Below the pieces are notes generated by a model. The model saw only the letters and a program-made list of their open reading frames with translations. It was not told the origin of the DNA and did no database searches. This document shows, piece after piece, positions 13,436 through 62,300 of a stretch of 64,000 nt of DNA. The translations under genes were made by a program, and so were the position numbers. Numbering within the stretch: the first letter of the stretch is position 1; the number at the start of each line of letters is the position of its first letter. This DNA comes from Podarcis vaucheri (Eukaryota), in the NCBI GenBank assembly GCA_965113315.1, contig OZ220364.1; one strand, given 5' to 3'.

Positions 13436-16400
13436 TCCATCACTGTGTGCAAAATATGAACTTCTCTCTGTCCTTTCCTTCAGGATGTGGATGCTGCTTA
13501 CATGAACAAAGTAGAATTGCAGGCGAAACTGGACTCCTTGACAGATGAAATCAACTTCTTGAGATGCTTGTATGAAGCTGTAAGTAGTCTTTTTGTGGCC
13601 TCCTGGGAGAACACTAGAGTGATGCGAATTTTGGGGTGGAGTTAAGAGTGAGTGACAGGTAGAGAGTCATTTGGGAAATGGCAACTGGAGGAAGAGATAT
13701 GGAAATGAGGGGTGGAGATTAGAGAGGTAATGGAAGCATATGTAAAAGAGTTGGGATTGCTGTTATGAAAGTTAGGCTAAAATGTTAGATTAGGAAATTA
13801 TTCTGTATCTGATGACTACCTGTTTTGGGTGTCACATTACTTAATTAAGTATTAGGGGTGTGCACAGGCCCTAAGTTTCCCCTTCTACCTATGTGCTTGT
13901 AAAAATTCTAGTCTGCTTCTGAGTCACTCTGTGCTGTCTCCGCTTTGATCTGTAATTCATCTCCTGAGCTACTCTGTCTAAAATGAAGCTCACAGTTTCC
14001 CCATTCACTATAATGGGAAATCTTTTATGTTCTTCATTGCTCTGCAGAAGGTGCAAAAGTGCATTGCATCCTCTCCATAAGACATCCTTGCAATGCATAA
14101 ATCCACATGCACGCAACATCGTCTGCTGTTATGACAGCAATTTGACTAGTGTACAGTGGTACCTCGGGTTACAGACACTTTGGATTACAACCTCTGCTAA
14201 CCAGGAAGTGGTTGCTCCAGGTTAAGAACTTTGCTCCAGGATAAGAAGGGAAATTGCGTGCCAGGGGCGTAGCGGTAGCAGGAGGCCCCATTAGCAAAAG
14301 CATGTCTCAGGTTAAGAACGGACCTCCGAGAACGAATTAAGTTCTTAACCCGAGGTACCACTGTATTGTAACAGCTAATTTTCATGTCCAGCTTTTGGGA
14401 TGCCAGAAAGTTCTAAGCATAGTTTTTAGAAGGACAGACTTTTTGCAGGTGTGCCAATATGGACTACGACATCCATTAGTCACCTTTAGAAAAAAAATTA
14501 GACAGATGCCTCTACCAAGGGGAGAGGTAAGTGATAAAATCGACATTTATGGTGAAAAAACATGATGTGACCATGGCGCTGTCTACATATTTATTTATTT
14601 AAGGTAGATGTACTCTACATTTTAACCAAGTGGACTCCCATGGCAGCTTACAAAAATCAGTAAATCGATTTCTTTGGCAGGAATTGAGCCAGATGCAGCA
14701 GACCGTTTCTGACACCTCCGTTGTCCTCCAAATGGACAACAACCGGAATCTGGACTTGGACAGCATCATTGCAGAGGTCAAAGCTCAGTATGAGGAAATT
14801 GCTCAGAAAAGCCGAGCAGAAGCAGAGTCTTGGTACCAGAGCAAGGTGAGTTCTCAGGCCTATCAAGCCTTGCCAGTCTAAAATGACGTCCTTGAGCAAA
14901 AACCAAATCCAAACAAACAAAGAAACTCTTGTTGTTCGTTAATGGGAAAGGCCAAATGCACACAAGGCAATGTATTAAACTAGGAGTGATCCGACTTCAG
15001 CTCCGTGTGCTTTGCTTTATTTTTACTAGAATCGCCATGGTTTTCCAATGTGTTTTACATTCGCAAATCAAGAGTGCGGGTTCAAAAATCTGCCAGTTGA
15101 GCCACAGTAACCCTGAATGAAGTGGTCCTGTCTATGCTTATGAACATACAATGTAGTGCTTTGCTGGAACAGACAAAAGGCCCCCATTATTTACAAAGAA
15201 GCCCAGCAAACAGCAGTTGGGACATAGGAAGCTGCCTTATACTAGCTCTGACCATTGGCTCAGCTGATTGAGTATTGTCTACACAGAGTGGCAGCGACTC
15301 TCTGGGGCTTACAAGCAGGGGTGGAGAACTTGTGGCCCTCCAGATGCTATTGGACTCCAACTTTCACCAGACCCAGCCAGCAGGGCCAGTGATACTGTAG
15401 TCCAACAACATTTGGATGGTCACAGGTTCCCCATGCCTGGTTCATAGACTTCCCCAGCCCTATATGTAGATCCTGGGAGTGATCCTAGGACCTTCCACAT
15501 CCGAAGTATATGTTCTACCCATGAGCTCTTGCCCTTCCCCAAGGTGCTATGTTGTCCACTGGAAACTGGCTAGTAATCTATCAGTATTGCTTTAATCAAG
15601 CTAGTCCACCAAGCACTGCAGAAACACGCCTTTCTTTTTTGGGGACAACCCTGGAAGGGTGTCAGAGGGTTTGGCAAAATCTGAGCCATTGCTCAGCTGG
15701 GTTTTTGTTTGAAGAAGATTTATCTTCTCTGATATATCACAATTTGACCCCTTTCTTCTTTCTGAATTCCAGTATGAGGAGCTGCAGCAAACGGCTGGGA
15801 AACACGGTGACAGTCTCCGTGACACCAAGGCCGAGATCTCTGAACTGAACCGGATGATTCAGAGGATACGGTCTGAAATAGATAATGTGAAGAAGCAGGT
15901 AAGGCTGGAGGAATATATGCAAGATTAACCCTAGGGTGGAGGGGGGGGGCAGAGATTTTTATTGGAATTTCACAATCTGGTCATCTTAGTCCTCTGCTGT
16001 TGTCTTAACTGCAGCAATTCATTTAGTAACACAAGGCAAGCCAAGAGATATCAAGCTGAAGTAGGATGGCCTCTTTGTTTGAGCATTATCTCCTGACCTT
16101 GCACTTCAAAAAAATATGGCACTCACAAATGGTTCCCAGTGGATGTAGGGGGCCGCTGCATGCAGGAGGAATGGTGCTGCTGGTATTAAAAATAAAAATG
16201 ATATTCCAATAATCAGTTTTTCGAATGCCTTTCAGTGTGAGAAGCTGCAGGCTTCCATTGCAGAAGCTGAGGAACGCGGTGAGCTGGCCCTCAAGGATGC
16301 CAGGGACAAATTGAATGAACTGGAGGTTGCCCTGCAGAAGGCCAAGGAAGAAATGACCCGTCTCTTGAGGGAGTACCAGGAGCTGATGAATGTCAAGTTG

Positions 16401-18695
16401 GCGCTTGATATGGAAATTGCCACCTACAGGAAATTGCTGGAAGGAGAGGAGAGCAGGTGAGTGTGATGCACAGGAAGGAGGTGTGTATCTGGACTTTGCT
16501 GAAGAGAAGACAAAAAGGGAAATCATACTGGAGCTTTCATTGCATACCTGCTTCCCCTTCCTGGGGAGGGGGAGGGAAGGCCATGAAATGTTTGACTGAG
16601 TCCAGCAGTTAAATTCTAAAAAGGTGAGGTGCCATGACTGAAGCCCACTTGGGAAGGCCGGTCCATGAGATCAGAAATGTAAGGGTGGGCAATGTATACC
16701 CATTGGCGAGGAAAGCATGTACTGCAGTGATGGGGAATCGTGGGATCTACAAACATTGCTGGGCTACAACTCCCATCATCTCTGATGGTTGTCCATGCTG
16801 AGAACTGTGGTCCAGCAACATCTGGAGGGCCATTGTTTGCCCATCCCTGATGTACTGCATACTGGGCACACATGTGAACTGGTCTGGCTCAGATTAAGCC
16901 ATGGTTAAGCTTGATGGAATGGTAAGAGCTGAGGTTAGGCTGTGGCAGTGCAAATCCTGACCGAGAGGGTTTAGGTGGATGCTGTGGCAAGAACAGGGGA
17001 AGTAGGGACATTGTTAGAGGGTGGCTCAGGGTCCTGGGGTCCTGGTTCTTTTTTTTGGGGGGGGGTTCTCTCCTCCTTTTAAAAAGACTGATTTATTTAT
17101 TTTTGGTTACTTTACTTACTGCAAAGCTAGACCCCAGCCCCCTGCCATCTTTTTTGCCCAAAGGCATCTATCCAAATATTTTCATTTTCATTTCACTTTT
17201 AATTTGTATACCCCCTTTCTATATTGCTATATGCAAAATATACAACAAAGATCATACCTCTTACAACAATAAAATCCAATGCAAATAAGTCATAATAAGA
17301 ATATGAAGCATATAAAGAACACCTGCAATTTTTACTACTACTACTATTACTACTATTACTACAAATAATAATAATAATAATAATTCTTGAAGTACGTAGC
17401 AATTCTCCTGGTGGAGAGAGGTTGGGAATGTCACAAACAAAGGCACATATCGTTCTTCTGGGATTTCCTCTGCTTCCAGTGCTGGGAGAGGTTTACAATG
17501 TGGACTGTGCAGCTGCAGCAACCACTGGAAGTTGTGGCAGGCTAGTGTGAGCTGAAGGATCATGCCTATCTGAATTGCAAGTTCTGGAAAGGGTGTCCCT
17601 GACTCTTGAAATGAAGGCCGTCTATCCGATCATGCCCACATTATTCCCTAGTGATCTTGATGGCCAAGCAAGCAGCTGCACCCGGGTCTCCTGTGTCCAA
17701 CCCTATCTGCTCTCTGCACTGCACAGCACTCACCTTCACAGTGCCTGATGATTAAAGCAACAAAGGGATTCAAAGGATTTGTTCATTGTTGTTCAGTATT
17801 TTGTGTATCAACGCCCAATTGGATCTCATCTCTTGCCTAAACATCAGGTTTTTTCTCTCCTTCACAGGATGTCTGGAGAGTGTCAGAGCACCGTGAGCAT
17901 CTGTAAGTAGTGACTCTGTACTCAACTTTTAAAATTAGTGGCACTATCCTATAACCAGCTGCTCTGGAAAATGGCATGCGCTGGCACCACTGTGTCTTGA
18001 TGTGGTTTTTACAACAGTGGTCATAGTGGAGATGCACCAAGCTCTTAAGCGCCATAGATACAGACACAGAAGGAAAGTTGTGGATGCAGAATGTGGCATC
18101 AGGGCTGTGGAAGATCCCCCCTTGTGCTATCCTGAACACATTTTGACTACTACAAATGCAACTGTGTTGGTGCAACTCCAGTGTGCTGTAGTAACATGCC
18201 AGAAAGAGGTTGAAACTCAACAAAGCCAGGGATGATGAACTGGAGGGTCACGGTTTCTCTGTCCCCAATTTTAAATGTTACAAAAATACCACGTGGGAAC
18301 AACTTTTGTATGTGATGCCGTGGTTTGCATTTCTTCATGCTCATGGGTTGATAACATTTGTAACTTATTCAAAGCAAGCCAATGAACTTCATGGATGAAT
18401 GGGGATCGTTTTGAACCCAGCATCCCTTTAGTGCAAGGATGAGGAACTTGTGGTCCTCCAGCTGCTGCTGGACTGTAACTCCCATCATTCTTGACCATTG
18501 GCCATGCTGGCAAGGGCTGATGGGATCTGGAGTTCAGCAACATATGGAAGGCAACAGATTCCCTGCTTTAGGTCTCGTTCAGTGCTTAAGCCCTTACATG
18601 CCACATACTTTCTCAATTGACTCTCATCACACGGATGACTCCTTGGCCCTGGAGGCTTTGCTTGCCTTATTTTAAGATGCAAAGTAGCTGGGAGT

Positions 18696-21474: not shown

Positions 21475-21934
21475 AAGGCCCCTGAAGCTACCATAAGGTG
21501 TCTTGACTTCTCTGGACCGTAGCGGTGGGTGCCACCGTGCAGCTGTTCAGGCAGTGCAAGGTCTCTTTAAATCAGAGAGCCCGCACCACCGCCAGGACAA
21601 GCTGCCACCTGTTGCTTGCTCTGCCCCGACGGAGTCTGGCTGACTCACAATTAGACAATAAATGTGTACCGTATTCTTCTTCATGGAAAAATAAGACATC
21701 CCCTGAAAATAAGACCTAGCGCATCTATGGGAGCAAAAATTAATATAAGACACTGTCTTATTTTGGGGAAAACAGAACAGTGAGAACAGTTTCTCTCTCT
21801 GTGTGTCTCCATTCTCTGCTGGAACAGAATATGGGGTTGGGGTCCATTCCCATTGCAGGTGTGAACTTCACAGCCCAAACTTCCAGTAACAGGCCAAGCA
21901 AGGCAGAGGGAGGTGGAGAAAGGGCTTTAGAGGG

Positions 21935-22366
21935 TGTAATGTGTATGGGTTGCTCGTGCGTAAGTTGTCGCCTCTCCAGGCTTTGTTGCCTTGCTAAACC
22001 TTTCAGTCTGGGCAGCCCTTCACTTCGTGGCTGCCTCAGTCACTAGCAGAATCCGTCAGTGGGCGTTTCTTAAATCTTTACCAACATAAAAGTTGTTTGA
22101 CACCCAGTCTCCTCCTACTCTCTCTGCGCGGAAGTCTTCTGCGCAGGGTGGGCGTGGGTAGCGGAGGACCCGTGCTCTCCCCGCTGGTGTCCGGTGAAGA
22201 GTCCTGGAGCCCTCTCGCTGATTCCCCCATCAGCCCCTCTATATCCCTGGTGTTGTGCTGATTTGCTTCCCCATCTGCGGAGCTGCCTCTCTCCCTGCTG
22301 GGTCCCTCTCCAGCATCATTTGAGAGCCTTCCCTCCGCCTCTAGCTCCGATGTCAGTTCCCTGACA
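21935..22366 (-). mobile_element. Solo LTR (Gypsy-like), copy A; carries an LTR-internal frame with one premature stop
   Basis: TG...CA termini, perfect 5-bp TSD GAGGG (21930-21934, 22367-22371); homologous to 25141-25597. Strand is assigned from the ORF direction. Confidence 0.75.
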
Positions 22367-23439
22367 GAGGGGGATGGCAGGAGAGGAGGCTTTGGAGGAG
22401 GGGGCAGGGAATTGGAGGTAGATGTAAAACTGGGAGGGCAGGGAAGGAATTGATGATGGAGGGGATGGGGCAAGTTAGACTGAAAGGGACTGACACATGG
22501 CATAGAGCTTGACAACGGGAGGATCTTCTAATCTGGAGCATATACAGACCACAAGCATTGGACTCTGGCCTGTCTGTGACTCCAGATTCCTTAATGCCCT
22601 TTAATCACCCTGTTCAAAAAAGGGCAAATTAGGTAGTTTCCATTTAATTGCAATAATAATCCAATTTTCCCCTCTATTCATAATTTTCAGAACCCTCTCA
22701 AACATCAGTTTCCAGGATTCTTCGAGAATAGCCATGAAAGCTAAACTTGTGGAAAACTTTGTAGTGTGAATGGCTCCCAAAGCTGAAGGGCATTTCCATT
22801 CAAATGGTGTTTGTGTGCCACGTCACGTGATCAGTTATATGGGGTGGGGCTTACCTGCTCCCCACGTACTTTATTCAAGTTGGCACCCCTGGCAGAACAT
22901 CTGAGATTACAGCAGCATGACTGAAGTAGAGTCATGTGCACAGGATTGCGTATGCAAGTGAGACCTTCCCTTAAGTGGGAAACCTCATGCTGATTCACCT
23001 TTTGCTGAGACGGCCAAATGAACGGCTAGTGTCTCGCCTTAGTTTTGTAACTTTATGCTACCAAGCACTTAACCACCACCCACAAGGAGCAATGAAAGAC
23101 GTGCGGCTTCCCTCAAGGAACTCCTCCCACTGGCTTCGCAAACCTAGATTTCAGTTTCCTTTTACACCAAGTACACAATGTTCTTGCTCTGTTAGATTAT
23201 CAGATAGAAGCAAGAAAAATGGGACAGTGACAAACCACTGGATTTTCTCTTAGCAAAACGATAGAATACAGGGGTCAGCAAACTTTTTCAGCAAGGGGCC
23301 GGTCCACTGTCCCTCAGACCTTGTGGGGGGCCAGACTATATATATATATATATATATGCTTTCGTAGATTTTCACGGGTACAGGAATGCAGGTTTTGGTG
23401 TCTTCGGGTGTCTTCCCGTGTAAGAGTCGGGGTGTCTGT

Positions 23440-23477
23440 GCGACGTTTCGACGAGGTCTCACTCGTCATCTTCAGGC
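23440..23477 (-). ncRNA. Mirror copy of the hammerhead motif in the left arm
   Basis: Reverse complement of 24581-24618. Confidence 0.6.
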
Positions 23478-24580
23478 TGGTGCTTTCGGCTTCTTGTTAC
23501 TGGAACAGAGCAGAGTTTGGTGTTTGAGTTCCTATAAATACTGTTGAGGGGTGTGGTGTATAGCCTCCAACGTTCTGGGCAGAGAGGAAGTTCCTAGATT
23601 AGTGTGCCTTTTCTTCTTTTGTTCCTTAATTACTTGAGGGATATCTTGGGTGATTTCATGAGTGATATTCTGAATATCACTGGGTGGGTCATTAAGTGTA
23701 GATTAGTTGCTAAAGCTTTCGTGTCTTGACCTCTTGAGCTTGTGAAGAGTTTTTCTGAGAAGATGGCTGTGCTGCATTTAGTTGTGCTCTGGCTTGGCTT
23801 CGTGTATAGGGGCGAGCTATGGTTTTGTGCCTTGTGCCAGCCAGATCTGTGTAGGGATTGCAGGGGGGTGCAGCATCCGGAGGTGCCACTATAGTTTGGC
23901 TACTGGATGGAGTCTGTAATATGTCTGTGGAGAGGGTCTGGGTTTGGGTCTGGTGTGGTTGATTGGTGACGGCGTTCTGTGTGCCTCTGGTTCTGGTGTC
24001 GGTTTTTGTGGGGAGGGCCTGCCAGACATCTGGAAATTAGCCCTCCCCACAAAAACCGACACCAGAACCAGAGGCACACAGAACGCCGTCACCAATCAAC
24101 CACACCAGACCCAAACCCAGACCCTCTCCACAGACATATTACAGACTCCATCCAGTAGCCAAACTATAGTGGCACCTCCGGATGCTGCACCCCCCTGCAA
24201 TCCCTACACAGATCTGGCTGGCACAAGGCACAAAACCATAGCTCGCCCCTATACACGAAGCCAAGCCAGAGCACAACTAAATGCAGCACAGCCATCTTCT
24301 CAGAAAAACTCTTCACAAGCTCAAGAGGTCAAGACACGAAAGCTTTAGCAACTAATCTACACTTAATGACCCACCCAGTGATATTCAGAATATCACTCAT
24401 GAAATCACCCAAGATATCCCTCAAGTAATTAAGGAACAAAAGAAGAAAAGGCACACTAATCTAGGAACTTCCTCTCTGCCCAGAACGTTGGAGGCTATAC
24501 ACCACACCCCTCAACAGTATTTATAGGAACTCAAACACCAAACTCTGCTCTGTTCCAGTAACAAGAAGCCGAAAGCACCA

Positions 24581-24618
24581 GCCTGAAGATGACGAGTGAG
24601 ACCTCGTCGAAACGTCGC
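24581..24618 (+). ncRNA. Minimal type I hammerhead ribozyme motif (PLE pLTR)
   Basis: GC-CUGAAGA-U-GACGAG(UGAGAC)CUCGUC-GAAA-C-GUC-GC: conserved core, 6-bp stem II, palindromic ACGU helix III, GUC triplet; helix I only 2 bp. Confidence 0.6.
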
Positions 24619-24667
24619 ACAGACACCCCGACTCTTACACGGGAAGACACCCGAAGACACCAAAACC

Positions 24668-24670
<3 letters not shown>

Positions 24671-24714
<44 letters not shown>
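24671..24714. repeat. (TA)n microsatellite (right flank of the Penelope insertion; left flank 23337-23357)
   Basis: Read directly. Confidence 0.95.
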
Positions 24715-24716
<2 letters not shown>

Positions 24717-25140
24717 GGGATTGCACCAGGCAGGCCCCACAAACAACCCAGAGATGCATGTTAACTAAAAGGACACATTCTACTCATGTAAAAACACACT
24801 GATTCGTGGACCATCCGTGGGCCGGATTTAGAAGGCGATTGGGCTGGATTCGGCCCCCGGGCCTTAGTTTGCCAACCCATGCAATAGAGGAAAAAACCTA
24901 GTAAATGAAATCAAAGGGAATGACCTCTTGCCAAACAGCAAAGCAAACGTTACACAAACATGGGTAAGTGCACATATGCTTATGTACATGAAGTGTACAC
25001 TAGTTGTGATAAGATTATGGGTCTTCTTCATTTTCTCCCACGTGAGCAACAATGGAGGAGTGGGATTGAATTGACAGCCCCATTTGCAACTTTCACATGT
25101 ATATTGGCTTTGGAAAACAGGTGGAAAGGTCTATCAGTGG

Positions 25141-25597
25141 TGTCAGGGAACTGCCATCGGAGCCAGAGGGAGAGGGAGGGCTCCAGAGGGATTCTGGAAA
25201 GCGTCCCGGGAGGGAGAGAAGCAGCACATCTTCTGGGGAAGGGAATCAGCGTAACACCAGTGGAGAAGGGGGGCAGATGGGGGAATCGGCGAGGTGGCTC
25301 CAAGACTCCTCGCCGGGAACCAGTGGGGAGAGCACGGGTCCTCTGATGCCCACACCCTCCCTGCGCAGAAGGCTTCCGCGCAGGGAAAGTAGGCGGAGAC
25401 TAGGCGTCAAAGAGCTTCTTTGCTGGAAGAAGTTCAAGAAAAGCTCACTAATGGATTCTGCCAGCGATTGAGACAGCCACGGGCGCGTGGCTGTCCAGAC
25501 AGAAAGGGTTCATTCAAGGAACCAGCCAAGGGTGGCGTTGATTTACACACAAGCAACCCGTGAAGGCTGAAAAACAGAGCCTCCATTTGTCAAGACA
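25141..25597 (+). mobile_element. Solo LTR (Gypsy-like), copy B; intact 110-codon frame 25142-25471
   Basis: TGTC...GACA termini; colinear with copy A. TSD is imperfect (gtgg/gtgt) and the 3' end is less certain. Confidence 0.65.
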
Positions 25598-25938: not shown

Positions 25939-26078
25939 NNNNNNNNNNNNNNNNNNNNNNNNNNNNNNNNNNNNNNNNNNNNNNNNNNNNNNNNNNNNNN
26001 NNNNNNNNNNNNNNNNNNNNNNNNNNNNNNNNNNNNNNNNNNNNNNNNNNNNNNNNNNNNNNNNNNNNNNNNNNNNNN
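25939..26078. other. Assembly gap (N run)
   Basis: 140 Ns. Confidence 1.
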
Positions 26079-40300: not shown

Positions 40301-43300
40301 ATCCATGATTAGAACATTGCTGGAGGAACTTTTGCTTTGTTTCTTAAACACAACACTGTTTCTGCCCAACAGTATGAAGCTCTGCAAAACACAGCTGGAA
40401 GACATGGGGACAGCCTGACTAACACCAGACATGAGATTCAAGAGCTGACTAGGAACATTCAGAGACTGCGTGGCGAGATTGACCGTGTCAAGAAGCAGGT
40501 ATGGCACTTAAACATTCCATTTGGGCAAAGGCTGAAAAATGTCTTCTTTTTCAGGCGGTCCACATCACACCACATGGGTGTAAAGTTCATCTTAGCTATC
40601 AGATGGGCTTTAGCTCAGTGATAGCTTGAGAAGCTCCTAGTCCAATCCTTGATAATTCCAGGTCTAAGTATTACATTGTTGTCTTAGACCTTGGAAGAGA
40701 CCAAATTGATGGTACTCTGACTCAGCAACTTCATACATTTATCTCTGGAAGATGCCTGATGCCCATTATTCTCTTTTGGAATTGCCCCTCCAATCTCTCA
40801 ACACTCTGCAATCTATTAAGGATGGCGGTGGCTTTGTTCAACAGTTGCATCAGATCAGGCAAGCACACAATGCAAATTGCATTGCCTGTATGTAAATTCA
40901 GGCGTGACAGTGATTGAAGTTGCATTTCCCTGAGAAGCCTGGGTGGTTCAAGGGACATCGTGTTGCAATTTGAACATGGGAGGCTTTTAGGGTGGAAACG
41001 TTTTGGCTTTAAACCAAGTCTTATCTGTAAATACTGGGGAGCTGCAGTCAGTCAATTTGGACCAGCTTGGCACCCTTGAGATATTCTGGACTACAATTCC
41101 CATAAACCCCAGCCAGCATAGCTAATGGTTGTGGATAATGAGAACTGTAGTCTAAACCATGTTAGGGAAGGCTTGCTTAAACAATACTGACCTAGATGAT
41201 CAAATGATCTGAGTTTGTATAAGGGAGTTTCCTATGTTTCTCAGCTTTTAAGGGATGCTGACTCATCACTTAGTGGATTGTGCAGGCAGCAGTAGTCGTT
41301 CTGTTCTGAGTCTTGTCTCTTGCCTAAAAGGAATCTGGCAGAAACTCTGCTCCACTGCACCCGTACACATGACTTGGAGAGAAAGAGTTCCTTTCTGGGG
41401 AGGACCTTGGCTTACAACTGTTGCTCAGCAATGGACTCATGATACTCTAATTCAAGATGCATGGATGTTGGCAATGAGGGATCAACACATTCATCTTGGC
41501 TACATGGAGGCCACATGGAATAGCCTCTGTGTGGTGCCCTCTCCAAGCTGCTGCCTTAATGTGCAGTATAATGTCAGAGGTGTTGCTCCATATTCTGCAG
41601 AGAGTTCTCAGTCTCTCACACATCAACTGTTGCTAGAAGCTGCCACTCTTCTGTGGAAATGTGCTAAGGTGCCAAGTGTCAGCTGAGATACCTTAGTACA
41701 GGAAGACTGGAAAAAGCACCTGGAGGTAGACTTACCAAAAAACCCCCAAATATTGCTTAATTTTCTCCATTAAATAATGACATCTAACATACCAATAAGT
41801 AGAAAAGACATGTGTTGGGAGAGCTGAACTTAGAATCATAGAATCATAGAGTTGGAAGAGACCACAAGGGCCATCGAGTCCAACCCCCTGCCAAGCAGGA
41901 ACTTGATCCCAGGCTTACCTGGACTCAGCCTCTGAACCTCTTTGGAACATCAGGATTCAGACTTGAAAGAGATGGCTCAGTTCAGGCAAAGTGTTGGTCC
42001 CCACCACTGCTGAGCCCTCACAAGAAGTCTCTCCTTCAGATGTCATTAGACTCCAGCTCTCATCAGTATCATTCAGCATGGCCAATGGCCAGTCCAGCAA
42101 CATCTGGTGGGCATCAGGTTGGGAAAGGTTGCTCATGGTATCTTGAATACATCTTTCAGAGCAACCACGAAGGCTCCTATACAGTTTTGAGCCTCAGCAT
42201 CTTTCTTTTTCTAAGATTATGAACATGGCCATATCCCTTGGCACTATGGGTCCAGGCTGGCCTATAAATCCCATTCTTTGACCTGGAAACAATTATCCCT
42301 GATGGGTGCTCAGATCAGGGATCGATCAGTCTGTTCCCAGCCTTTGTTCCTAAATTCAGGGTTTCAGGTGATAGACAGGAATAATGAGACAGATATTCAG
42401 AGATTGGACTGAACAGCTGTCAGAAAAACATGGGCTTCTGATGCAATCCCTGCCTGGGAGGCTTGTTAAATAGCTGGGTAGGTAAACAAAGCAACAAGGA
42501 AGTCTGGGATTCCAAAAAGTCCATCCCAAGGTCTCAGTCGTACTGGAAATAGAAAAGTTTTTATCTTTCTCTTCTTCTTGTCTTGCAGTGTGCTCAGCTG
42601 CAGTCAGCCATTGCTGAAGCTGAGGAGCGCGGCGAGTTGGCTCTCCGGGATGCTAGGCAGAAACTGGAAGAATTGGAATGTGCCCTGACAAAGGACAAGG
42701 AAGAGTTGGCTCGCCTATTGAAAGAGTACCAAGAGCTGCTGAACGTCAAGCTTGCTCTGGACATTGAGATTGCCATGTACAGGAAACTGCTGGAAGGAGA
42801 AGAGAGCAGGTGGGTGACCACTGCAACCTTCCACAGAGGGAATTTTTTTTCTTTGTAGATTAACTGGACCAAGGGTCTGCAAGCAGCTTCTGCCTTGATT
42901 TCAAATATTGCTGGGTTCAGGGAGGATTTTGCAAATATTTGAACATTCATAGAATGCTTAGTGGCATAGTGGACATCCAAATTATGGGGAGCAAATTTGT
43001 TATGGCTCCAGAAGGAATGTCCTTGGTGGTTTTATTGTTTGTTTTGTTTTGTTATTTTGTTATGCCTCCTTGGTGTGTTGTGTGCTTTTCTTTACTTATT
43101 TTGATGACGTTGTGTAGCACTCTGCCTTTTCTGCTTGTTTCTCATTGGTCCAGATTATATGGATTGATTTGCAGAAGGGAATTTGGGGGGGCAGGAGTTA
43201 GAGGAAGGAAGGTCTAGCCTTGTAAAATGGGCATAGGACTACATGGCTTTTGGGGTCACTTGTAAGTTGGGCCTAGTAATTCTATGACTCACAGATGCTA

Positions 43301-59300: not shown

Positions 59301-62300
59301 GACAACCCACGCTACGCCGCTGCCTTGGCCATTCCTATATGCATGTTGAAGCTGCTCGCCAGTGCCCTGTCCCTTTCAATCTGTTTGATCCTCAGGTTCG
59401 ATTCCTCGAGCAGCAGAACAAAGTCCTAGAGACCAAATGGAACCTCCTGCAGCAGCAACCCATCTCCCACGCGAAGAGCAACATGGATTCCCTCTTTGAG
59501 GCCTACACCAACAGCCTGAGGAAACATCTAGACTCTCTGAAGGGTGAAAGAGGGAGGCTGGGCTCAGAACTGAAGAACGTGCAGGAGCTGGTGGAAGACT
59601 TTAAGCGCAGGTAGGTGAGGAAAGGCAAGGCCAACACTCAGTTCTTCCCACCCGGAGTGCAATTCCCCAGTGATGGAGACGTACATTTTGAAGTTCAGGA
59701 GCTCATCATGACAGCCTTCATAGCTACGATCCGAACAGCAGCTCTCAGATACAGGCAGCTGTGTTATCCGTATCTTCACAGGCACTTCCCCTGCACCAAA
59801 GCAGGCGTGTGTAGCATAACACTAAATTTAATTAGGAACAACTGACAAGCCATAGATGTTAAAGAACAAATTCATCTGGTAAAGCACATTAGGCTTGAAC
59901 CAAAGATCTTCAGCCCACTGAAATGCAACCTTTAGCTTTTAATTAGAAATGCAAACAGTCTTGCAAAAGTACCCAGCTTCTCCTTGACCACCCCCCTCAT
60001 TCTCTGAGTCTCTAAGCTAATCAGTCACAAATAAACTAGCAATCCTCATCAGCACCACATTCACTTGCCAGTGCACGGTACTCTTTGCTCCTGTTTTGAG
60101 AAAGGTCTCCTATCATGGTTTACACATTTGATGGGAAGTGCCATTGTAGAATAGAAATTAGTAGAGCCCCTTACTCTCTATTTCACCTTGCCAGTGGCGT
60201 TTCCCCTGGTTTTGTGCCCCCCTTTTTTACTTTAAACAGATATTGAACAGATTATGGCCGCAGATCCATCACAATCTTTGCTTTTGTTTTCGTTCACTCT
60301 CAAAAGGTACGAGGAAGAAATCAACAAGCGCACCACTGCTGAGAATGAATTTGTACTGCTAAAAAAGGCAAGTCTTGAAACGCACGCAAAGTGATGACAC
60401 CCGTTATAAATCAGGGGTGAAATACCTCAGGCCTGAGGTTTGAATAAAGCTCTGCCCAGGCCTCTTTCTGGCTCTGGGGAATCTTCCTACACAACCACAC
60501 TCTCTCTCTCCTCATTGTCCTGGCTTCATAGCATCCGGGCCGAAATGTCCGTGAACTCTGATAATGACTCTTGTGTGCCAGGGTGAAGGCTAGAGGCTGC
60601 ATGTGTGTGTGTGTGTGTGTGTGTGTGAAAGCCAGCCTTCTGTACAAATGTAAAATCTACCTTCCTTTCCCTGCCCACATGGGCCTCTGGTATCGGTCCC
60701 CTGGGGGGCTGTACAGAAAGGAATGTGGCCTTTGCTCTGAAAAAAGTTCTGCACACCTATTCCAAATGGAGGTAAGTGAAGGGGTATGTGAGTGTGGAAA
60801 TATGTTTATATACAGGCAACCTACCCATCAACTGTCCTGCTTTAAGCGGTACATCCTGGAATTATAGAAGCTTCTGATCAGATCCCATGATGTCCTGTTT
60901 TGGCTCACACAAGAGTGCAGCCCTGAAAGATGTGCATTTGGGGGGGCGGCACACTCTCACACAAGTCACATGACTCGTGCAGGAGCTGCTCTCCCGATTT
61001 TCCTCTGTGGCATGTTAGAGGGTGTGCAACTAGTGAATTTACAATCAAAGCAGTGCATGAGTTTTGTTAAATTAAAAACAAACAAATGAACACGTATATC
61101 TAGAATGAGCTCCATGTTCGAGTGGGCACTGGGGAAAAATAAAGCCCTCTAGTGTGCCTCCTCTGATGTTGATCTTTCCTGGTGGGCTTACCTGCTAGAG
61201 ATCATGGTGGCAGCAGTGGCAGGCAACTGTAGCAGGACTGGTGGCAGAGGCAGCACAATAAGTCATCTGCCATGTAGATTTCCCACAGTGCTCTAGAATG
61301 ATGCCACATTGGGGGTTTTATGAGTATCTGAAATGGTGGGTGACTTCCAAATCCACCATCATCTGTACTGGGCCCTGCCCCAGCAGTGGAGCCCTAGCAG
61401 CTGCTCAAGGATATCAGNNNNNNNNNNNNNNNNNNNNNNNNNNNNNNNNNNNNNNNNNNNNNNNNNNNNNNNNNNNNNNNNNNNNNNNNNNNNNNNNNNN
61501 NNNNNNNNNNNNNNNNNNNNNNNNNNNNNNNNNNNNNNNNNNNNNNNNNNNNNNNNNNNNNNNNNNNNNNNNNNNNNNNNNNNNNNNNNNNNNNNNNNNN
61601 NNNNNNNNNNNNNNNNNNNNNNNNNNNNNNNNNNNNNNNNNNNNNNNNNNNNNNNNNNNNNNNNNNNNNNNNNNNNNNNNNNNNNNNNNNNNNNNNNNNN
61701 NNNNNNNNNNNNNNNNNNNNNNNNNNNNNNNNNNNNNNNNNNNNNNNNNNNNNNNNNNNNNNNNNNNNNNNNNNNNNNNNNNNNNNNNNNNNNNNNNNNN
61801 NNNNNNNNNNNNNNNNNNNNNNNNNNNNNNNNNNTTCAACATAGGATTTAAGTTTGGGAGAGTGGAGGGCACAAATCTGAGATCTAAGATGGTAATTTCA
61901 GGGCTTTCAGCACCAAAAAAATGAGGGCCTATGTTTGGAAGGTGGGATGCAACGTGTTTCCATTTTTACCTCCCTGCTCCAACTGGATTCACCTTTTTTT
62001 TTTTGGCAGAGGGAGGTGTGTTTTCAATGTTCTTCCCCTGCAGGCCCAGGACCTTGCATTGTAGATTTGAAAGGACCCTAGAGTAAAGGAGGAATGCCCC
62101 ACAGTCTGTGATTTACTCCCTGCAGTTTCATCAAATGCTTAACTTGGGCTATACCTCTACTGCTGTGTGTTCATTTGACTGGTTCTTAACCCTTTATGAT
62201 CTTCAATGTAATTTCCCCTTCCCAGGATGTAGATGCAGCCTACATGAACAAGGTGGAGCTGGAGACCAGGGTGGCTTCTCTGACAGATGAACTCAACTTC

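Follow-up and report, generated by a model that had tools for sequence, protein, structure and literature searches.

Coding sequence can lie inside the long terminal repeat (LTR) of a retroelement, as in HIV nef and MMTV sag, which overlap the U3 region. In plant CRM elements the Pol polyprotein itself extends into the 3' LTR, where a conserved motif is found (PMC3059260, PMC3605345). Tf1/Sushi chromoviruses (Ty3/Gypsy, Metaviridae; vertebrate V-clade, e.g. Sushi-ichi) carry a chromodomain after the integrase and a CCHC Gag and are self-primed, and production of Gag-Pol by a -1 frameshift is typical of the group outside the fission yeasts (10.1101/2022.12.06.519325; PMC6317226). The available part of a review that models Sushi LTRs holds nothing on coding within them (PMC3601003). 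The present analysis concerns two LTRs in a 64,000-nt stretch of Podarcis vaucheri DNA (contig OZ220364.1, assembly GCA_965113315.1), referred to as the window. Both are solo LTRs left by a high-copy Gypsy chromovirus that is self-priming and belongs to the Tf1/Sushi kind, and each carries a frame of 109 codons. Very probably, the Pol frame of the parent element runs on through the polypurine tract and U3, and the peptide makes up the final 109 residues of the integrase, with a basic end that likely serves nuclear entry or nucleosome contact.

The subfamily A copy lies on the minus strand at 21935..22366 (432 nt, TG...CA ends) between target-site duplications of 5 bp, GAGGG (21930..21934 and 22367..22371), exactly as delimited in an earlier note made on this DNA. 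In a search of its own genome the best 39 other matches were 98% identical to it. The subfamily B copy, on the plus strand at 25141..25559, is cut at LTR base 419 of 433; its match to the subfamily is confined to LTR bases 1-419, all 39 other matches stop at base 419, and there is no target-site duplication around it. The earlier note had placed its frame correctly and had carried its end too far, to 25597, since the LTR of this subfamily is 433 nt long in 23/30 copies and stops here at 25559; the stretch 25560..25597 is outside the LTR. The frames, encoded by U3 and R, occupy 22036..22365 (minus) and 25142..25471 (plus), each with 109 codons and a stop. They align over 330 nt without a gap and end in a common TGA, as had been claimed. 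Copy B is open, and copy A has a premature TAA at codon 96 (22080-22078). The last 42 codons (22039..22164, minus, in A; 25343..25468, plus, in B) encode the conserved basic end, which is Pro-rich and Arg-rich, continues with R-L-G-V-x-x-x-L-C-W and closes on D-S-A-S-D.

Own-genome searches returned 3237 (B) and 3763 (A) first-look candidates, the best 40 of each being scored, and 60 loci were fetched. Most of these were solo LTRs, 432 or 433 nt long and flanked by 5-bp duplications: the length was 432 in 29/30 subfamily A copies, and the duplication was exact at 24/30 A and 20/30 B loci. Internal sequence was found in only three of the 60, with a Gag bearing a CCHC knuckle after two of the LTRs and an integrase with chromodomain before one. 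The 109-codon frame was open in 27/30 A and 22/30 B copies, and every other frame had stops in at least 28/30 copies in both sets.

The frame was followed into the body of the element by a protein search with chromodomain plus tail, of whose 17,806 candidates 150 were scored, with 57-100% identity and open frames of up to 1304 residues. A single frame of 1304 residues runs from protease to the LTR stop. Above the Pfam cut-offs it contains RVP_2, RVT_1, RT_RNaseH, Integrase_H2C2, rve, SH3_Tf2-1 and Chromo (1055-1100), followed by about 200 residues with no Pfam match, 109 of them encoded by the LTR. The order along it is integrase, chromodomain, acidic stretch, polypurine tract, the whole of U3, and a stop in R. 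In 20 of 30 copies that retain both body and 3' LTR, the chromodomain shares its frame with the LTR, and in 17 of these 20 the distance between the two is the same, 410 nt. Thus the long conserved Pol/integrase tail that the earlier note had offered as one of two options is supported, the frame being continuous through the polypurine tract in body-bearing copies. Two UniRef models of Podarcis muralis (P0002 and P0003) and a Logan protein (P0001) reach the same LTR-encoded end; models from P. muralis were the nearest proteins with a name, which points to a lacertid host. In a set of 40 copies described below, LTR-frame lengths varied by whole codons (102-112) and the stop was TGA or TAA. Some copies matched only as far as the polypurine tract; the 14 of these that were fetched carried no other LTR but this one, altered by indels, deletions or truncation, so a swap of LTRs was not seen.

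Several observations weigh against this reading. The chromodomain was in another frame in 9/30 copies and was not found in 1/30; the integrase core was in frame with the LTR in 13/30, in other frames in 14/30 and not found in 3/30; and further copies shift frame in G-runs before the LTR. The shifted copies have indels at differing places, often in such runs, and are read as carrying scattered indels acquired after insertion; they may instead reflect a regulated short form. Both window copies are intergenic, and tethering by LEDGF would predict a bias towards gene bodies. Neither the LTR frame nor its last 42 residues were assigned to a Pfam family. In the PDB, a profile of the end gave seven matches at E 0.6-5.6 (among them CKS2 and a viral polymerase), which are taken as chance. 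The functions suggested below for the basic end and for the FxGF motifs are drawn from sequence patterns, and the proposed transcription start at LTR base ~307 from base pairing.

A profile of the whole tail had no match in the PDB, and the ESM Atlas gave no usable match to the tail. A profile search of 1.84 billion representatives, a library poor in vertebrate repeats and so no guide to the range beyond lacertid lizards, returned five matches, all from this chromovirus family or its LTRs. Separately, a second chromovirus family was noted in the UniRef set of P. muralis (P0130, 42% identical), with an unrelated tail of 134 residues, acidic and then basic, that ends in R-R-S-A-R-L; two relatives end in R-R-S-x-R-L. 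This end presumably resembles the nucleosome-binding motif of HMGN proteins.

The pattern of substitution shows that the end of the frame has been kept as protein. Amino-acid identity between A and B is 24/45 over codons 1-45 and 53/64 thereafter, and in the last 40 codons 14 differ only synonymously, six nonsynonymously and one by a stop, with 19 identical; these counts, reported before, were exact on recount. Differences fall on the three codon positions as 9, 4 and 24 in codons 46-110, against 12, 11 and 11 in codons 1-45. The Nei-Gojobori ratio of nonsynonymous to synonymous rates (dN/dS) comes to 0.11 over codons 46-109 and to 1.04 over codons 1-45, so the earlier view that neutral divergence would not give such a pattern is upheld. 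That a ratio well below 1 would be confined to this frame was only partly so: four other frames gave 1.20-2.84, but the antisense frame that shares third positions gave 0.17, although it has stops in 60/60 family copies.

The same contrast was found across the family. From 70 loci, 44 passed a filter for an unshifted frame from the integrase core to a recognisable end, and 40 were used after two mis-framed copies, one deletion and one duplicate had been dropped. These gave 700 between-cluster pairs, which are not independent, and intervals are bootstraps over codons. The dN/dS was 0.08 for the integrase core, 0.11 for SH3, 0.15 for the chromodomain and 0.24 for the acidic stretch; in the LTR it was 0.66 for the first 53 columns, 0.25 for the next 13 and 0.18 (0.11-0.30) for the last 47. 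The last 42 residues are thus conserved like the chromodomain (0.18 against 0.15). The last 16 residues are biased towards conservation by the filter; the remainder of the basic end gave 0.19. Solo LTRs taken whether or not their frame was open (29/30 A and 25/30 B, those without indels) had a ratio of 0.13 in codons 46-109 and of 0.83 in codons 1-45, and the last 42 codons of solo A against solo B gave 0.12. Purifying selection therefore acts on the last 42-60 codons, which are preceded by an unconstrained spacer. Over many copies the ratio stays low rather than near 1 (0.13 for codons 46-109 in solo LTRs, 0.18 for the last 47 columns of the 40-copy set), and LTR-frame lengths differ by whole codons. 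The selection proposed in the earlier note is real; it acted on the Pol of active parents and not on the solo LTRs themselves.

An older family, here called C, was reached in the same genome through two distant LTR peptides from the profile search. At about 62% DNA identity to A, its LTRs keep a frame of similar length from LTR base 2 with the same end motif (P-x-L-x-R, E-x-R-x-R-L-G-V, L-C-W, D-S-A-S-D), whose positions are mostly kept in 38-46 of 46 copies (46 retained of 54). The pN/pS is 0.35-0.42, with synonymous sites near saturation. One deleted copy has an in-frame polypurine junction, and the first of the FxGF motifs described below is present in one copy. The LTRs of this family also have AATAAA in R/U5, the same first bases and a different U3 spacer.

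An 11-nt site after the 5' LTR is the complement of LTR bases 307-317, or of 310-320 where the LTR is longer. Forty elements were fetched, 25 of them with a 5' end and 24 anchored; self-primer and primer-binding site pair exactly in 16/24 and with at most one mismatch in 23/24, in four covarying versions, to which family C adds a fifth. There is also a second duplex, 4-12 nt long, formed with U5. The self-primer is at 22050..22060 (minus) in copy A; the corresponding position in copy B, 25447..25457 (plus), has two differences. This pairing would place the start of R and of the transcript near LTR base 307, with codons 1-102 in U3. Because transcription would start there, translation would be limited to the 3' LTR, with which the genomic RNA ends, as part of a Gag-Pol made by -1 frameshift. 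The protease is in the -1 frame relative to Gag in 12/21 copies and in other frames in nine decayed ones. Solo LTRs would be unable to make the peptide from their own promoter. Among sequencing runs, no RNA run was listed as containing the stretch. RNA reads from runs chosen by species label, mostly less than 90% alike, gave shallow coverage of both strands of the LTR; they gave no clear start site, none crossed the polypurine tract, and they are uninformative on both start and expression.

The other option of the earlier note was a separate accessory protein of 64 residues, beginning at an ATG at codon 46 (25277..25279, plus, in copy B) that it took as conserved. Such a protein, comparable to Rev, Rex or Sag, would be made through an LTR promoter or by splicing. 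Strong selection in the A/B pair does begin only after codon 46, and the ATG is common to A and B and to 24/40 diverse copies. However, the other 16/40, whole subfamilies included, have no Met there, nor do family C translations at the matching place; conservation begins near codon 55-68 rather than at 46; the frame is continuous with Pol; and the ATG precedes the inferred start of transcription by ~170 nt. This Met is an internal residue and not a conserved start, and an accessory protein is extremely unlikely.

A tail that is only passive read-through of Pol, its conservation reflecting promoter and priming signals in DNA or RNA, would accord with the nearly neutral codons 1-45 (0.83-1.04 for A and B, 0.66 in the 40-copy set) and with the overlap of the self-primer with codons 103-106. 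Yet in the conserved end the synonymous sites vary freely (dS 0.69-0.82, and close to saturation when compared with family C) and the amino acids are kept: the R and L of R-L-G-V are written with four and five different codons respectively. For the last 42 codons read-through is refuted by the codon-position pattern and holds only for the spacer; as an account of the tail it is very improbable.

The part of the tail between chromodomain and polypurine tract, which lies outside the window copies, holds two tandem motifs (seen at L095:1501-2124, minus, and L131:4615-5217 among the fetched loci and in proteins P0001-P0004). Each has a putative helix ending in Phe, an acidic linker of eight (motif 1) or nine residues (motif 2) and F-x-G-F, the last residue being Trp in some subfamilies. 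HIV integrase uses the host protein LEDGF. Motifs that interact with TFIIS N-terminal domains (TND) consist of a short helix, an acidic linker of 8-16 residues and FxGF in a disordered region, and the FxGF part is required for LEDGF and HRP2 (PMC9987994). A pattern for the lizard motifs, composed after these sequences had been inspected, which counts against it, has two matches in 36/44 tails and one in 8/44, and it also matches 4/4 human motifs in fetched fusion constructs (both of JPO2, POGZ and MLL). It had no match in 72,126 residues of upstream polyprotein. Of 99 related polyproteins, 67 with a located chromodomain, five have the pattern, all from this chromovirus family. The anchors are kept in 35-40/40 copies, the F and W of the helix in 39-40/40, and the linkers vary.

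The lizard motifs resemble the LEDGF-binding motifs of JPO2, POGZ, MLL1 and IWS1 in the helix ending in Phe, the acidic Ser/Thr/Gly linker of 8-9 residues and FxGF. The linker of motif 1, at eight residues, is as long as those of JPO2 motif 1 and POGZ, and the tandem pair recalls JPO2. They differ in lying in a retrotransposon integrase tail and in the final Trp of some subfamilies, and their binding is putative. In a low-confidence AlphaFold model (pLDDT 52) the tail is disordered apart from short helices, one at motif 1 (residues 5-13) and one at the L-L-C-W end, and there is no helix at motif 2. The genome holds exons of both LEDGF and HRP2 type. When motif 1 (34 residues) was modelled in complex with the integrase-binding domain of Podarcis LEDGF, the prediction scored 0.28 and 0.29 against a mark of 0.34; it was run without alignments with a tool unproven on peptides, a pass would have been favoured by solved structures of the domain with peptides, and it is evidence neither way.

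The FxGF motifs may bind a TFIIS-N-terminal-type domain such as the integrase-binding domain of LEDGF or HRP2, and the disordered tail of about 200 residues could be a string of docking motifs made up of the chromodomain, the two helix/acidic/FxGF motifs and the Arg-rich end encoded by the LTR. A multi-motif chromatin-docking tail of this kind, with two mimics of LEDGF/HRP2-binding motifs and an arginine-anchor motif in the LTR, is put forward tentatively, with slightly more doubt than belief. If it exists, a retrotransposon has reached the host tether of lentiviral integrases by its own route, by mimicking a linear motif of the cell, and part of that tether is written in the element's promoter DNA; a host factor of lentiviral integration would also be used by a retrotransposon. 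Insertion-site choice of vertebrate Gypsy elements has been little studied, and this family supplies short candidate motifs that can be tested. In the literature searched, mostly by title and opening lines of the abstract and outside Repbase/Dfam and the 2001 work on vertebrate Tf1/Sushi elements, no description was found of this chromovirus family, of an LTR-encoded tail in a vertebrate chromovirus or of FxGF in a retrotransposon integrase.

With its many basic residues, the end encoded by the LTR could serve as a nuclear localisation signal and would bring the integrase into the nucleus or onto nucleosomes. It has an Arg nine residues before its Trp, the two being kept in 43 and 44 of the 46 copies of family C, and the nucleosome-binding motif of chicken KNL2 likewise has R527 and W536, nine apart (PMC10015371). 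This spacing and the basic stretch could indicate a CENP-C-like motif directed to centromeric nucleosomes, a vertebrate counterpart of the CR motif of plant CRM elements. Body-bearing copies do gather near contig ends, with 29/47 in the outer tenth (46 from the chromodomain-plus-tail search and one from another). Solo LTRs, however, are spread evenly along contigs on which the centromeres are unmapped, 13/59 falling in the outer tenth where 20% is expected (counted on contigs of known length, 16 further LTRs on other contigs being left out). Moreover, the residue at +8 is Cys rather than a second aromatic, that at +17 is not Asp, and the profile of the end matches no CENP-C or KNL2 chain in the PDB at E <=10. 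The CENP-C-like motif is therefore decidedly unlikely. Because solo LTRs are dispersed, the likely role of the basic end, judged from its composition, is nuclear import or general nucleosome binding and not centromere targeting. On one contig of 41 Mb lay 89/150 body-plus-LTR matches (counted by hand) and 0/80 of the best solo-LTR matches. Low recombination would explain the body-bearing copies there and near contig ends, and this contig probably represents a chromosome that does not recombine, such as W.

In this genome, solo LTRs with a protein-like frame number in the thousands and can mislead gene predictors. Two P. muralis models in UniRef fuse pieces of the frame to host proteins: P0005 is a phospholipid-transporting ATPase that ends in the last 42 residues of the LTR frame, and P0222 is a Gla-domain protein that begins with its first half. 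These fusions are probably prediction artefacts, although they may be cases of exon capture.

In the window, copies A and B sit between two intermediate-filament genes (rod-end exons 16233-16457 and 42583-42810). Exons of such genes, with Gly-rich heads, lie at 14678-16457, 42583-42810 and 59393-59620, and the window falls within a long keratin-like cluster. Between the two LTRs is a perfect inverted repeat of 633 nt (23386-24018 and 24040-24672) with a 21-nt spacer and flanking TA-runs, which we take to resemble the inverted ends of Penelope-type elements. Runs of N occur at 25939-26078 and 61418-61834; the first starts about 380 bases past copy B, clear of the LTRs described here.

Compared with known systems, the element has the features of a Ty3/Gypsy chromovirus, namely the order protease, reverse transcriptase, RNase H, integrase, a C-terminal chromodomain, TG...CA LTRs, a polypurine tract and a short duplication. 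It shares with the Tf1/Sushi group the chromodomain after integrase, the CCHC Gag, the mostly -1 frame of Pol relative to Gag (12/21), the self-priming site with its second U5 duplex, and TG...CA LTRs with 5-bp duplications. It shows the Tf1/Sushi features that were tested (self-priming and -1 frameshift), and the assignment is by features and not by a tree. Unlike its Tf1/Sushi relatives, it has about 200 residues past the chromodomain, of which 109 are encoded by the LTR; most other chromodomain relatives found have fewer than 70. As in plant CRM elements of group A (CR motif/CHDCR), the polyprotein extends into the 3' LTR. In CRM the CR motif replaces the chromodomain, priming is by tRNA-Met and the elements are centromeric (PMC3059260, PMC3605345), whereas the lizard chromovirus keeps its chromodomain, upstream of the polypurine tract, primes itself, has dispersed solo LTRs and carries a motif with no Pfam match. 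Since Pol running into the LTR was already known from plants, the finding is less new than was first supposed in the earlier note, which did not recognise an LTR-encoded protein of this kind as described. The tail is also contained in automatically predicted P. muralis proteins in UniRef. HIV nef and MMTV sag are separate genes, and the lizard LTR frame is the end of Pol. The LTR-encoded integrase tail is, on its sequence, a known architecture in variant form, and its interest lies mainly in the lead given by the candidate LEDGF-binding motifs.

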